Below are positions 50,959-55,769 of a stretch of DNA of 64,000 nucleotides, piece by piece (the stretch's first letter is position 1; each line of letters starts with the position of its first letter). Under the pieces are notes generated by a model. The model saw only the letters and a program-made list of their open reading frames with translations, was not told where the DNA came from and made no database searches. The position numbers were made by a program, and so were the translations under genes. The DNA lies in the NCBI GenBank assembly GCA_963665235.2, contig CAXXLX010000001.1, positions 2,272,001-2,336,000 of the forward strand. The letters are read 5' to 3'. The stretch is from Candidatus Poribacteria bacterium (GTDB taxonomy: Bacteria > Poribacteria > WGA-4E > WGA-3G).

Positions 50959-51771
50959 ATGGCACAGCCAGAGCTCACATTAACAGCACATCGCCCGTTT
51001 CAAACCCAACGCCAAGACACCTGGTGGGTACAACCGCTATCCGTCCTTATCGGACTGGGCCTATTTATCGTTTACGCCACCTTCCGGGTTTTTGAAGGTG
51101 CCCATTTTCTTCACGGCCCCTATTTGTCGCCTTTCTATTCACCGCTCCTTTTTGGGATGAACGAGGTGGCACATAGCGTTGAGCATAGTTGGTTTGGGCA
51201 GATGCCTGCTTGGATTCCCGGTTTTATTACCCCAGCGGTCCTGATTTTGTGGGCACCTTTAGGATTTCGCTTTACCTGCTACTATTACCGCGGGGCATAT
51301 TACAAAGCATTCTGGGCAGACCCACCCTCTTGCACGGTGTCGGAACCGCGTAAAGGTTATCGAGGTGAACACTCCTTTCCTTTGATTGTGCAAAATATCC
51401 ATAGATATTTCCTTTACGTCGCGTTTGTCATCCTTGGCGTACTCGCCTATGATGTATGGAAAGCGTTATGGTTTGACGATGGAAACGGGGGAAAAACCTT
51501 CGGCATCGGGATAGGCACTCTCATCTTAGCAGGCAATGTTATCTTACTAGGCGGATATACCCTCGGATGTCACTCCTTACGCCACCTCGTTGGCGGTGCA
51601 GTGAATTTACTGTCTAAAGCACCGGTGCGGCGAAATATGTATAACTGCGTCAGCTGTCTAAACCGCAGACACATGCTCTGGGCATGGATGAGCCTCTGTT
51701 GGGTAGGTCTCTCCGATTTGTATGTCCGAACAGTTGCCACCACCGGTTGGCAGGACTGGATTACGTTTTGA
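50959..51771 (+). CDS. sdhC: Succinate dehydrogenase membrane anchor, actinobacterial Sdh1 type
   Basis: FRFTCYYYRGAYY, QNIHRYF, GCHSLRH motifs; directly upstream of sdhA. Confidence 0.85.
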   Translation: MAQPELTLTAHRPFQTQRQDTWWVQPLSVLIGLGLFIVYATFRVFEGAHFLHGPYLSPFYSPLLFGMNEVAHSVEHSWFGQMPAWIPGFITPAVLILWAPLGFRFTCYYYRGAYYKAFWADPPSCTVSEPRKGYRGEHSFPLIVQNIHRYFLYVAFVILGVLAYDVWKALWFDDGNGGKTFGIGIGTLILAGNVILLGGYTLGCHSLRHLVGGAVNLLSKAPVRRNMYNCVSCLNRRHMLWAWMSLCWVGLSDLYVRTVATTGWQDWITF

Positions 51772-51807: not shown

Positions 51808-53625
51808 GTGGCATCTTATGAAACTTTTGACTATGATGTATTAATAATCGGTGCGGGCGGAGCAGGACTGCGCGCCGCCATTGAGGCAGCTACAGGTGAC
51901 CTGAAGGTCGGTCTCGTTTGCAAATCTCTACTCGGAAAAGCACACACCGTTATGGCGGAGGGCGGAGTCGCCGCCGCATTGGCAAATGTGGACGAAAGGG
52001 ACAGCTGGCGGGTTCATTTCGCTGACACCATGCGTGGCGGACAATACCTTTCTAACGCCCGAATGGCTGAACTTCATGCAAAGGAATCACCGGACCGCGT
52101 CCGCGAACTTGAAGCATGGGGGGCACTCTTCGATCGGACCCAAGATGGCAGTATCCTCCAACGTAATTTTGGCGGACATCAGTACCCACGGCTTGCACAC
52201 GTCGGTGACCGAACCGGTTTAGAGATGATTCGTGCTTTGCAAGACCACGGTATTCATCAAGGCATTGAGGTCCACATGGAGAATACCGTCGTTTCACTTC
52301 TCAAAACGGGTGATAGGGTTTCAGGTGCATTCGGCTACGAACGCGAAAAGGGACGGTTCAAAATCTTCGCTGCAAAGGCGGTCGTGTTGGCAACCGGGGG
52401 TGTCGGCAAGGCGTATAAAATCACTAGCAACAGCTGGGAATATACCGGCGACGGTCATTCGCTTGCCTACCACGCGGGGGCAGAACTGATTGATATGGAG
52501 TTTGTGCAATTTCATCCGACCGGCATGGTGTGGCCTCCGAGTGTGCGCGGAATTTTGGTTACAGAAGGCGTTCGCGGCGAAGGCGGCATCCTTAAAAATA
52601 GCGAAGGCAAACGTTTCATGTTTGACGACATTCCGGAACTCTATGTGAACCAAACAGCCGACAATCCCGAAGAAGGATGGCTCTATACACAAGGCGACCG
52701 CGAGGCACGTAGACCCCCGGAATTGCTAACTCGCGACCATGTTGCACGTTGTATCGTCCGAGAAGTACAGGAGGGCAGAGGCAGTCCTCACGGCGGAGTC
52801 TTTTTAGATATTGCGTGGATTCGGGAAAAACTCCCCAACGCCCCAGAACACATCCGCAGGAAACTGCCGAGCATGTACCATCAATTCAAGGAACTCGCTG
52901 ACATTGACATCACGGCTGAACCTATGGAGGTAGGACCAACGACACACTATATTATGGGCGGTATCCGCGTTGATGCCGATACCCAAATGACATGTGTGCC
53001 TGGCCTTTTCGCAGCAGGTGAGTGTGCAGCGGGATTACACGGTGCCAATCGCCTCGGTGGCAACTCCCTATCCGACCTGCTTGTCTTCGGAAAACGGGCG
53101 GGTGAATACGCCGCACAATTTGCATCCGAAAACGGATCGGTACCGCTCGAGGAGAGCGGCATAGATGATATTGCACAGCAGGTCCTCAAATCCTTTGACA
53201 ACCCAGCGGAGGGCGATAACCCGTACCAGATTCAGGCGCAACTTCAAGACAAAATGCAGGAATTAGTAGGAATTGCAAGAAGTCAAGAGAGTCTGACGCA
53301 AGCCCTGGCGGAGATTCAGATTTTGCGGGAAAAGGCGGACAATGTCCACACTATCGGCAATCGAGAATATAATGCAGGGTGGCACACCGCGCTTGACCTT
53401 GACTGCCTGCTCACTATTTCAGAGGCTATTGCACTCGCGGCACTTGAACGGAAAGCCAGTATCGGCGCGCATTCCCGCGATGATTACCCCGAAAAGGAGG
53501 AGCCGGCGGCAGGGAAATATAACACCATCGTCCGAAAAGCTGACGATGGCACGATGGCTATTCGGCGTGACCCCGTTCCTGAATTATCTGAAGAACTTCA
53601 GAAAATCATAGCCGAAATAGGATAA
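51808..53625 (+). CDS. sdhA: Succinate dehydrogenase/fumarate reductase flavoprotein
   Basis: GAGGAG, KAHTVMAEGG, QFHPTG, HYIMGG, GANRLGGNSL. Confidence 0.95.
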   Translation: MASYETFDYDVLIIGAGGAGLRAAIEAATGDLKVGLVCKSLLGKAHTVMAEGGVAAALANVDERDSWRVHFADTMRGGQYLSNARMAELHAKESPDRVRELEAWGALFDRTQDGSILQRNFGGHQYPRLAHVGDRTGLEMIRALQDHGIHQGIEVHMENTVVSLLKTGDRVSGAFGYEREKGRFKIFAAKAVVLATGGVGKAYKITSNSWEYTGDGHSLAYHAGAELIDMEFVQFHPTGMVWPPSVRGILVTEGVRGEGGILKNSEGKRFMFDDIPELYVNQTADNPEEGWLYTQGDREARRPPELLTRDHVARCIVREVQEGRGSPHGGVFLDIAWIREKLPNAPEHIRRKLPSMYHQFKELADIDITAEPMEVGPTTHYIMGGIRVDADTQMTCVPGLFAAGECAAGLHGANRLGGNSLSDLLVFGKRAGEYAAQFASENGSVPLEESGIDDIAQQVLKSFDNPAEGDNPYQIQAQLQDKMQELVGIARSQESLTQALAEIQILREKADNVHTIGNREYNAGWHTALDLDCLLTISEAIALAALERKASIGAHSRDDYPEKEEPAAGKYNTIVRKADDGTMAIRRDPVPELSEELQKIIAEIG

Positions 53626-53660
53626 GCACAACACCCCGGAGGAAAGCGAAAAATGACGGA

Positions 53661-54080
53661 TAAACCTTAACAGGTTTCCCAAGCATTTATGCTTGGGTCC
53701 AACCCCGTTTTTGTGTTGATAAGAAAAGATATTTGCTTTTGAGTTATTTTTGTGATATAATATTAACAGCATCGTGGATAGGAGTTCTACGCTGCACACG
53801 ACTCCGTGCGGGTCCTATCCCTCACCTGTCCAATGGTGTGTGATGTTGATGCGAAATCATCTCAAATATGTTAGTTAAAAAGTACGGTGGGGCACACCGG
53901 AATTCACGCTTGTGGAGTCCAACTAAGACCCGCTAACTCTCATGCCAATGAGAGGGGGGCACGAGAGACAGGCTTCAGGCAAACAGCCTGCTCTTAAGCA
54001 GGAACAGCCATTTAGGAGGCAAATATGTCTACTGATTTAAGAGCTAAGAACCCCACTCCTTTAGGTGTGGGAGATGTCAG
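53661..54080 (+). mobile_element. Non-autonomous IS200/IS605-family mini-element (420 bp) inserted in sdhB codon 3
   Basis: Left end (CCCAAGCATTTATGCTTGGG hairpin) and right end (CCCACTCCTTTAGGxGTGGGAG...TCA) are shared with the tnpB element at 54.8 kb; tnpB-3'/omega-RNA-like sequence; excision restores MTDKATFRIW. Confidence 0.82.
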
Positions 54081-54816
54081 TAAAGCGACTTTTAGAATCT
54101 GGCGCGGCGATGCAGACGCAGCACAATTTGTGGATTACGAAACCGAAATCGGCGAAGGCATGGTAGTCCTAGACGCTGTCCACCGTATCCAAGCCGAACA
54201 AGCAAATGACCTCGCTGTCAGATGGAACTGTAAGGCAGGAAAATGTGGCTCCTGCTCCGCAGAGGTGAACGGCAACCCCAAATTAATGTGTATGACACGG
54301 CTCAACGATTTACCGCTTGACGAACCGATCACCATCGAACCGATGCGTGCATTTCCCCTCATCAGAGACCTCGTTACAGACGTATCATGGAATTTTAAAG
54401 TCAAAAAGAAGATGAAACCTTTCACACCGCGCCCCCCTGACGCAGAGGATGGAACGTGGCGCATGGAACAGGAGGACATTGAGCATATTCAAGAATTCCG
54501 AAAATGCATTGAATGTTTTCTCTGTCAAGATGTTTGTCACGTCCTGCGCGAGCATGACCTCCACGATGAATTTGTCGGACCCCGTTTCTTCGTCTACGCC
54601 GCCTCTTTGGAGATGCATCCGATAGATACTGAAAATCGGTTAGAAGAATTGAAGGATTCGGACGGTATCGGGTACTGTAACATCACTAAATGCTGTACGA
54701 AAGTCTGTCCGGAGCATATCACAATTACGGATAACGCAATTATTCCGCTTAAGGAACGCGTCGTCGACGAATTCTATGACCCGATTAAAAAGCTCTTCCG
54801 TATTTTTAAGGGGTAA
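54025..54816 (+). CDS. sdhB: Succinate dehydrogenase iron-sulfur subunit
   Basis: NCKAGKCGSC, CIECFLC, CNITKCC..VCP. Start and first ~18 codons lie inside the IS end. Confidence 0.95.
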   Translation: MSTDLRAKNPTPLGVGDVSKATFRIWRGDADAAQFVDYETEIGEGMVVLDAVHRIQAEQANDLAVRWNCKAGKCGSCSAEVNGNPKLMCMTRLNDLPLDEPITIEPMRAFPLIRDLVTDVSWNFKVKKKMKPFTPRPPDAEDGTWRMEQEDIEHIQEFRKCIECFLCQDVCHVLREHDLHDEFVGPRFFVYAASLEMHPIDTENRLEELKDSDGIGYCNITKCCTKVCPEHITITDNAIIPLKERVVDEFYDPIKKLFRIFKG

Positions 54817-54838
54817 GCCTATCGCAATGCTTGATGGA

Positions 54839-55578
54839 TAAACCTTAACAAGTTTCCCAAGCATTTATGCTTGGGGCCAACCCCCGTGTTTTGTGCGTTG
54901 ATAAGAAAAGATATTTGCTTTTGAGTTGTTTTTGTGGTATAATTACCCTGTCAGGTTGGCAAGGATAACGCGTGTAACCTCTTGGTTCCGTGCTTGCCTC
55001 CCACTTGTTAGGGGATAAACGCCTGGTACCTGATGGTTTCCGATGATAAAGACACACAAAATCACGTTAAATCCAAATCGCGAGCAGATAGTTTGGTTTT
55101 TTCAGCAATGCGGTTATGCGAAGTTTGCTTATAATCAAGCCTTGTCTGATTTTAAAACCGAACTTGCCTTGGATAACTTCTTATGCAAAAATCGCCTTTC
55201 GAAGCGCTTCAATAAGAAAAAGAAAGCTTTTGAGTGGACCCCCTCACAAGATCAACGTGCTGCGAAATACGCGATAGACCATCTCGGCTGCGCGATTGAT
55301 AACTGGATAGGAAAGCGTGCGGGTTTTCCGAAGTTTAAGCGTCGCGGTTGCAAGCATTCCTACCAAACGGACGAACAATCAGTTCGGATAGAGACTATCA
55401 TTGTCAAAAGTGTGGATTTCGCGAAGAGCGCGATGTGAATGCGGCTCTCAACTTACGACAAGTCGCGGTGGGATACACCGAGACATAAAACGCTTATGGA
55501 GTCCGTGTAAGCCCTCTATTGAGGAGGCTTTGGACGATGAAGTAAGAGGTCCCACTCCTTTAGGGGTGGGAGTATCAC
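54839..55578 (+). mobile_element. Degenerate IS200/IS605-family element with deleted tnpB
   Basis: Same left and right end hairpins as 53661-54080; contains tnpB fragments. Confidence 0.85.
55043..55488 (+). pseudogene. tnpB: tnpB, internally deleted and frameshifted
   Basis: N-terminus MIKTHKITLNP...CGYAKFAYNQAL...GFPKFK; another frame gives C-terminus YHCQKCGFREERDVNAALNL; central RuvC region missing. Confidence 0.85.
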
Positions 55579-55769
55579 GAAGACAGTCTACTCCCGCCTA
55601 GCGTAGAGTTAATTAACTTAGATGTTGAGGATTTAAGCATTGACCCCTATGAATTTTTGGAATTATCGCCATAAAATCATTGGTGTCACTCAAACTGCTA
55701 CCCCTTTAGTGTACGAGTATATAGAATTAACTATAATGTCTTTTTCCCTATCCCGGAGATGCTAAAACA

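Follow-up and report, generated by a model that had tools for sequence, protein, structure and literature searches.

Single-strand transposons of the IS200/IS605 family and the guide RNAs of their TnpB proteins are the ancestors of Cas12. Insertion sequences with outward promoters activate genes, Rickettsia palindromic elements are repeat insertions tolerated in frame, and IStrons target TTGAT-like sites; the gene-less elements called PATEs were reportedly treated by Dyall-Smith et al. in 2011 (PMC3119063). Minimal IS200/IS605 elements encoding omega RNAs have already been described, as far as the accessible text of Meers et al. (2023; PMC10055086) goes, and IStrons are, according to the accessible parts of PMC4227781 and 10.1101/2023.11.20.567912, a group I intron combined with an IS605 or IS607 element. 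Here we describe a TnpB-less mini-element of the IS200/IS605 family (PATE type) that has inserted into codon 2 of sdhB, a respiratory gene, in a bacterium of the sponge-symbiont type (genome G000, 92.6% complete). The locus lies in a window of 64,000 nucleotides (nt), i.e., the whole stretch of DNA analyzed (contig C1:2272001-2336000), and coordinates without a contig name refer to this window. Judging by the sequence, SdhB is probably translated from the element's own ribosome-binding site and start codon, an AGGAGG-N5-ATG at 54014/54025.

As with insertion sequences that carry outward promoters and with the Rickettsia palindromic elements, a mobile element here supplies expression signals to a host gene or is tolerated in it. 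Unlike in those cases, the signals are embedded in a hairpin of a guide-RNA scaffold and in the DNA hairpin at the right end of a single-strand transposon, and one stretch of ~65 nt would combine the roles of RNA scaffold, transposon end, and coding sequence. The closest match is to PATEs (as portrayed in the accessible text of PMC10055086), with which the element shares the absence of protein-coding genes, subterminal hairpins, insertion just after a short target that is not duplicated, an omega-RNA-like scaffold kept up to the right end, and a predicted dependence on TnpA and TnpB in trans. It differs from them in that its family adds a conserved promoter and a pseudoknotted 5′ domain of ~95 nt, and in that the sdhB copy sits inside an essential-type gene, for which it is predicted to provide the translation start. 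With IStrons, as far as the accessible parts of PMC4227781 and 10.1101/2023.11.20.567912 describe them, it has in common that an IS605-type element inserts into genes and neutralizes the damage to the host gene; however, it has no intron signature, and the damage would be neutralized by a new start and an N-terminal extension, not by splicing. A literature search, which was not exhaustive, returned no report of an IS605-type element supplying the start codon of a host gene, nor of a relevant IS605 insertion in essential genes. Elements of this type are known. New are the position within codon 2 of sdhB, start signals that only this copy carries and that are overprinted on its scaffold hairpin and right end, and a 5′ domain specific to the lineage.

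The element occupies 53658-54080 (423 bp) on the + strand, on which sdhC-like, sdhA, and sdhB follow one another in this order. Its first bases were set at GGATAAAC by an alignment of nine left ends, namely this copy, a neighbor at 54836, one copy on contig C2, and six from other genomes. The pentamers preceding these copies were ATGAC (here), TTGAT, TTGAC (twice), ATGAA (twice), TTGAA (twice), and one ATAAA, giving the target consensus WTGAH, to which eight of the nine conform; the target at this locus was therefore the start codon of sdhB plus AC (ATGAC, 53653-53657). At the other boundary, the right ends of relatives finish in ...GAGTATGTCA[A/G], and the sdhB copy finishes in ...GAGATGTCAG at 54080. 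The empty site was found directly in a contig of 325 nt that the RNA library of a different study yielded for a ~97%-identical relative (11 differing positions), in which 53657 is unambiguously joined straight to 54081. Moreover, all 29 orthologous loci from relatives were without the insertion and had five residues (M-x-x-x-T) before F[RK]IWRG. There was no target duplication, and both the exact joint in the relative and the 29 orthologues showed the empty site to be scarless. The ancestral sdhB began ATG ACT AAA GCG, i.e., MTKATF, and removal of the element gives ATGAC+TAAAGCG, i.e., MTKATFRIWRG.

The first-pass annotation of this DNA had placed an insertion just after the sdhB start, and the comparison with relatives agreed with it on this point (29/29 empty orthologous loci plus the one contig). 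The native start that it named is likewise there: GGAGG at 53638-53642 is followed by the ATG at 53653, at a position that fits the starts of 29/29 orthologues. This orphaned start (53638-53670, + strand) now opens just five codons (MTDKP) before a stop at 53668-53670. Two details needed correction. The separation of 420 bp became 423 bp with the boundaries set by the left-end comparison and the relative's contig, and the proposed excision product, MTDKATFRIWRG or MTDKATF, is one residue too long, the 29 orthologues all having the length of MTKATF. The insertion is not an assembly artefact. Both junctions were bridged at flank depth by contigs of runs X1 and X4, and run X5, from another study, holds 53961-54200 with the right junction included and zero differences. 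The filled allele, which is the assembled form in four runs of one study and was seen also in a second, is real and dominant. When metagenome contigs were scanned for the exact 32-nt 5′ stretch of sdhB and for a degenerate codon pattern, no closer alleles and no intermediate states were found, and the 40 relatives searched included no genome of the same genus.

The element has no transposase or tnpB gene. It is overlapped only by the open reading frame (ORF) that starts at 54025 and by a junction-spanning ORF on the minus strand; the tnpB matches of the genome fall outside it, and 423 bp is too short for such a gene. Both ends carry subterminal imperfect hairpins, conserved in relatives, and there are no terminal inverted repeats. 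The left-end hairpin (CCCAAGCAT-TT-ATGCTTGGG, 53678-53697, + strand) stands 20 nt behind the target, in a left end that is 91% identical over 112 nt to the neighboring element at 54832-54943. At the right end (54052-54080, + strand, delimited by alignment with relatives), the hairpin at 54052-54071 is followed by the tail GAG-ATGTCAG, which is 1 nt shorter than the GAG[T/C]ATGTCA[A/G] of 11/11 relatives. Ends, target, empty site, and absence of genes all bore out the earlier classification as a protein-less IS200/IS605-type mini-element.

The new start (54014-54027, + strand) consists of AGGAGG at 54014-54019, a 5-nt spacer, and the ATG at 54025, from which the frame is free of stops through the terminal hairpin to the sdhB stop at 54816. 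The stop-free frame had been noted before, with a spacer of 6 nt instead of 5. The present sdhB frame (54025-54816, + strand, 263 amino acids) was supported by the ORF list, the Pfam domains, and a match to the solved chain 7d6v_B. Its product begins MSTDLRAKNPTPLGVGDVS-KATFRIWRG, with 19 element-encoded residues followed by the native body from K3 (native DNA resumes at 54081), and the predicted N-terminal peptide of the fusion is NPTPLGVGDVSK. In the penultimate hairpin of the scaffold, H3, AGGAGG makes up the 5′ arm and the ATG occupies the 3′ end of the loop; H3 keeps 7/8 pairs in the sdhB copy, at -6.4 kcal/mol compared to -3.2 to -10.0 in relatives. None of the 11 aligned relatives has a Shine-Dalgarno sequence or an ATG at H3. 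Right ends were then collected across the genome by their end motifs and scored for AGGAGG, GGAGG, or AGGAG 4-13 nt upstream of an ATG; in only one of 53, the sdhB copy, did an ATG and such a strong Shine-Dalgarno sequence lie in a frame open to the end. Outward start signals are thus copy-specific, not shared among the copies.

The reading phase is similarly particular to this copy. Conserved TAAGAGCTAAGAA and the loop TTTAG shut two of the three frames through the right end. In the phase needed by sdhB, two element bases precede the T of ACT. Ten of the 11 relatives can read only 5 codons in this phase before the loop TAG ends it, and the remaining one reads 11; in the sdhB copy, whose post-hairpin tail has one base fewer than that of any of the 11, the phase is consequently open for 21 codons. 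Shine-Dalgarno sequence, ATG in an open frame, and correct phase therefore coincide solely in the copy that sits in sdhB, and, as far as sequence patterns can tell, these copy-specific signals argue for selection for SdhB.

The mini-element inserted at the WTGAH-type target made by the sdhB start codon (ATGAC|T), cutting off the native ribosome site and ATG from the gene body. We propose that translation now runs from the AGGAGG-N5-ATG in H3, through the right-end hairpin and into sdhB, with Met-Thr replaced by a 19-residue leader. Either a pre-adapted copy alone would have been able to survive at this site, or adaptation would have followed the insertion; selection for SdhB would be involved in both cases. 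The mRNA could come from sdhCAB read-through, from the element's conserved promoter, or from both. We infer that the promoter is used and that the protein made from 54025 functions.

The state of the sdh genes was examined next to this proposal. Upstream lie the sdhC-like membrane subunit gene (50959-51771, + strand), the operon partner of sdhA, and sdhA itself (51808-53625, + strand), encoding the 605-amino-acid flavoprotein subunit, which was intact by ORF length and domain search (FAD_binding_2, E 3.7e-93; Succ_DH_flav_C, E 1.9e-21). SdhB was identified by its 2Fe-2S ferredoxin-like and 4Fe-4S dicluster domains together with the upstream sdhA. Its domain set is complete (Fer2_3, E 1.9e-24, residues 23-121; Fer4_8; Fer4_17) and begins at residue 23, right at the native N-terminus. 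The closest solved chain was 7d6v_B (E 1.6e-101), aligned from its residue 6, and an N-terminal extension is plausible in the SdhB fold, by analogy, since other solved SdhB chains carry 20-80 additional N-terminal residues. This locus gave the only sdhB-like match in the genome. Proteins that fall into one 90% cluster with this SdhB carry the name Candidatus Poribacteria at their sources. Compared to the 29 orthologues, SdhB has two changes at invariant sites and four at sites that are at least 90% conserved (S>G, K>R, D>E, I>V), counts that fall inside the range of the other orthologues (0-4 and 0-9, respectively); these four departures are conservative, and sdhB looks functional from its sequence. 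The nonsynonymous divergence (dN) to the nearest relatives was 0.036-0.05 in pairwise dN/dS comparisons, in which the synonymous divergence (dS) against other genera was saturated. Against the empty-site contig, sdhB showed six differences, namely four synonymous third- or first-position changes and one double change in a variable codon. None of this evidence dates the insertion.

The promoter near the left end (53733-53761, + strand) that the first-pass annotation had pointed out is present, with TTGCTT at 53733-53738, a 17-nt spacer, and TATAAT at 53756-53761, and its support comes from a position conserved in the family. A TG at 53753-53754 makes an extended -10, and the transcript start is predicted near 53768. 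The promoter stands at a fixed distance before the 5′ domain, and 14/23 family copies match 10-12 of 12 sigma-70 positions; the sdhB copy scores 9/12, with a perfect extended -10 and a weak -35. Operon transcription may well continue through the element, judged from its sequence, since no terminator-like site was found on the + strand within it, and the internal promoter may add to read-through or offset polarity over the 354 untranslated bases. The suggestion that the insertion uncouples sdhB from sdhCA consequently stands only for translational coupling, which is lost.

Directly behind the promoter, at 53767-53860 (+ strand), lies the 5′ RNA domain of ~95 nt, consisting of helices P1-P5 plus a pseudoknot and defined by covariation over 23 copies. 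In these, 92.3% of cells were paired and 19/38 pairs showed double changes, a level reached in 0/500 shuffles, and slid controls dropped to 32-47% pairing. The sdhB copy breaks 2/7 pseudoknot pairs and is the sole copy of the 23 with more than one broken. Eleven copies of the domain were found in the genome (e.g., L008:1470-1587 and L084:407-524), each 292-703 nt upstream of a right end, a distance that means that the domain never occurs together with a tnpB; a single full-length tnpB element was examined and lacked it as well. Three different scaffold/right-end types are joined to the domain. A covariance model of the domain detected it in 62/99 genomes of the same family, 1/26 of the sister family, and 0/25 across seven further families sampled. 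Rfam searches of the element and 12 related loci at E up to 1 gave no match above noise, the hits being microRNA models and Chlorobi-1, whose 19 bits fell short of the cut-off of 50. By its distribution and covariation, the domain is a lineage-restricted hallmark of the TnpB-less elements of this bacterial family, strongly covarying and absent from Rfam. In one such mini-element (L006, G000 C1:892516-893214), a partly duplicated 5′ domain was seen together with a long tandem expansion of an 18-nt unit inside the scaffold.

The remainder of the element (53883-54080, + strand) is a tnpB-3′-derived, omega-RNA-like scaffold, recognized by homology to full-length elements. Positions 53906-53969 are 88% identical to the end of an element of the same genome (contig C2) with an intact TnpB of 402 amino acids (OrfB_IS605, TNB, and HTH), and 53906-54079 are 79% identical to a decayed element of this genome. 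Alignment with 11 related right-end regions gave 29 consensus pairs, 14 of them with compensatory changes, and the sdhB copy keeps 28 and breaks one. These identities and the covarying scaffold confirmed the retention of tnpB-3′/omega-RNA-like sequence noted in the first pass. Folds of the whole region had z-scores of -0.9 to -1.4, none of them significant. We also considered whether the Shine-Dalgarno/ATG had destroyed the penultimate hairpin, leaving the omega RNA dead, and rejected this on the alignment, in which 7/8 pairs are kept at -6.4 kcal/mol. A ~27-nt nested hairpin motif (ACAGGCTTCAGGCAAACAGCCTGCTCTT and variants) occurs inside the scaffold of the sdhB copy, at about 53968-53995, and of one sister copy; it was found at 16 other places in the genome in unrelated contexts, two tnpB reading frames included, and looks like a tiny mobile or templated insert. 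In run X7, RNA-library contigs from a related organism (3-5 differences each) cover 53883-54007 at a word depth of 30-300, compared to ~3 on sdhA/sdhB, which weakly hints at paralogous scaffolds being abundant RNAs, contig depth being a poor measure of expression.

On the TnpB/omega-RNA model (in the accessible text of PMC10055086), the flank TAAAGCGACTTTTAGAATCT at 54081-54100 (+ strand) would be the putative guide, the transcript being expected to extend ~16-20 nt beyond the right end and to direct TnpB to the empty site. A guide RNA against the empty sdhB allele is possible in principle, by analogy with that model, because this copy has an intact scaffold, the genome encodes related TnpBs, and the transposon-adjacent motif (TAM) would be ATGAC, a variant of the ATGAA seen at other copies. 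The weakened pseudoknot of the 5′ domain and the atypical tail were counted against guide-RNA function. Candidate trans-acting partners are numerous in the genome: of the 44 TNB-domain matches, 33 fall in frames of at least 370 amino acids without a stop, and there are 13 Y1-transposase matches, of which 8 are near full length and none is linked to these ends. A search for an intact tnpA/tnpB element with the same ends turned up none in this genome for the left end, which has only two other copies, one in the neighboring element with the broken tnpB and the other with no tnpB match nearby; TnpB genes with a related right end and scaffold do exist.

Several observations weigh against translation of SdhB from the element. 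An intact sdhB ORF says little if the insertion is recent, and the saturated dS leaves the post-insertion branch unisolated. Tails of 9, 10, and 11 nt were found across different subfamilies, so that the 1-nt difference need not be post-insertional. The -35 box fits at only 3/6 positions, which is why a consensus promoter scan missed the promoter, and the only sdh contig from RNA libraries came from the empty-site relative, not from the filled allele. Three further points also favor a rival, rather unlikely in our view, in which sdhB has been knocked out, as a recent pseudogene or because its loss is tolerated by a symbiont, and the in-frame AGGAGG/ATG arose by chance from an arm rich in purines and a loop rich in AT. 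Shine-Dalgarno sequence and AUG are buried in the -6.4 kcal/mol hairpin, which is expected to damp initiation; the 5′ arm of H3 is purine-rich in all copies (TTGGAAGC, TTAGGTAG, etc.), so already Shine-Dalgarno-like and one or two changes away from AGGAGG, which chance could supply; and other elements of this genome lie inside or at the start of long ORFs without a strong start signal. What speaks against a knockout is that three independent requirements meet only in the copy that needs them (1/53 right ends, 0/11 relatives), that sdhA and sdhB are without decay, and that the filled allele was assembled in four runs of one study and recurred in the second.

A reversible switch, with precise excision by a trans-acting TnpA regenerating ATGACTAAAGCG in some members of the population, appears improbable. 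IS200/IS605 excision is scarless (PMC10055086, accessible text), near-full-length Y1 transposases are encoded in the genome, and the exact empty site is present in a close relative; however, runs X1, X4, and X5 yielded no contig of the empty site (with the reservation that rare variants are lost from contigs), the genome has no intact element that shares this left end (the two other copies being decayed or without a nearby tnpB match), the tail is atypical in length, and a working omega RNA would have the empty site cut. Least probable of all, and very nearly negligible, is an IStron-like self-splicing that removes the element from the mRNA so that translation begins at the native start. Removal from host mRNA by splicing is described for IStrons, which are related to IS605 (PMC4227781; 10.1101/2023.11.20.567912, in their accessible parts), and the exact 53657-54081 joint did come from an RNA library. 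Against this, the Rfam search of the element and 12 related loci, at E up to 1, revealed no group I intron or other family, the conserved internal promoter starts a structured RNA downstream of the left end, and the flank upstream of the copies ends in C, A, or T, not always in U. The joined contig differs at 11/325 positions and so belongs to another strain, most simply one without the element.

The preferred reading, translation from 54025, may have a further layer, which we put forward tentatively and by analogy with known TnpB systems. The element would still be a working guide-RNA gene, and its RNA, loaded on one of the many TnpB proteins of the genome, would cut element-free chromosomes (TAM ATGAC, guide TAAAGCGACTTTTAGA) and thereby bar reversion, and a start codon inside the scaffold would have evolved as the only way out. 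This retention by a guide RNA is doubtful, and clearly less probable than the use of the start at 54025.

Further elements were recorded around this locus and elsewhere in the genome. Fifteen bases past the sdhB stop, behind TTGAT at 54831-54835, lies a second, decayed IS605-family element with a broken tnpB (54836-55580, + strand; homology, ORFs, and domains), which shares 91% identity with the sdhB element in its left end and promoter and whose tnpB is in pieces (55043-55438, 55348-55488, and 55401-55601). sdhB hence lies between an upstream left end and a downstream right end that have the same orientation, and the gene plus both elements could in principle move as one unit. At C2:528790 (minus strand), a full-length element ends one base before the ATG of a 624-codon ORF (MRLERIRLKTF..., which we take to be an SMC/RecF-like N-terminus) and separates the ORF from its ribosome site; the ATGAC at the end of the element itself contains an ATG that is in frame and lies two codons upstream of the ORF. 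Another full-length element, at C1:63521 (minus strand), lies inside a large ORF, of which 468 codons continue in phase with the open right-end frame of the element; that frame has an ATG 54 nt before the end and no ribosome site. Finally, tandem 32-nt repeats at C1:102300-102420 and C1:2105960-2106250 flank two oppositely oriented elements, beside a shared sequence of ~60 nt; a reading of these repeats as CRISPR arrays was rejected, as they have no spacers.

To our knowledge, little has been documented on how hosts accommodate insertions whose loss is hindered by a guide RNA. This locus offers a natural example, with a gene-less element in the second codon of a core respiratory gene and with re-start signals found in this copy only. 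If confirmed, it would mean that ATGA+H start codons are bona fide targets of this insertion sequence family, that overprinting can place a translation start and a protein leader on a transposon end, and that the damage of an IS605 insertion can be neutralized without splicing. If retention by a guide RNA were also true, ~65 nt would be an omega-RNA hairpin, a transposon right end, and the Shine-Dalgarno sequence, start, and leader of an essential respiratory protein at once, and the locus would be the fossil of a transposon-host conflict settled by overprinting.

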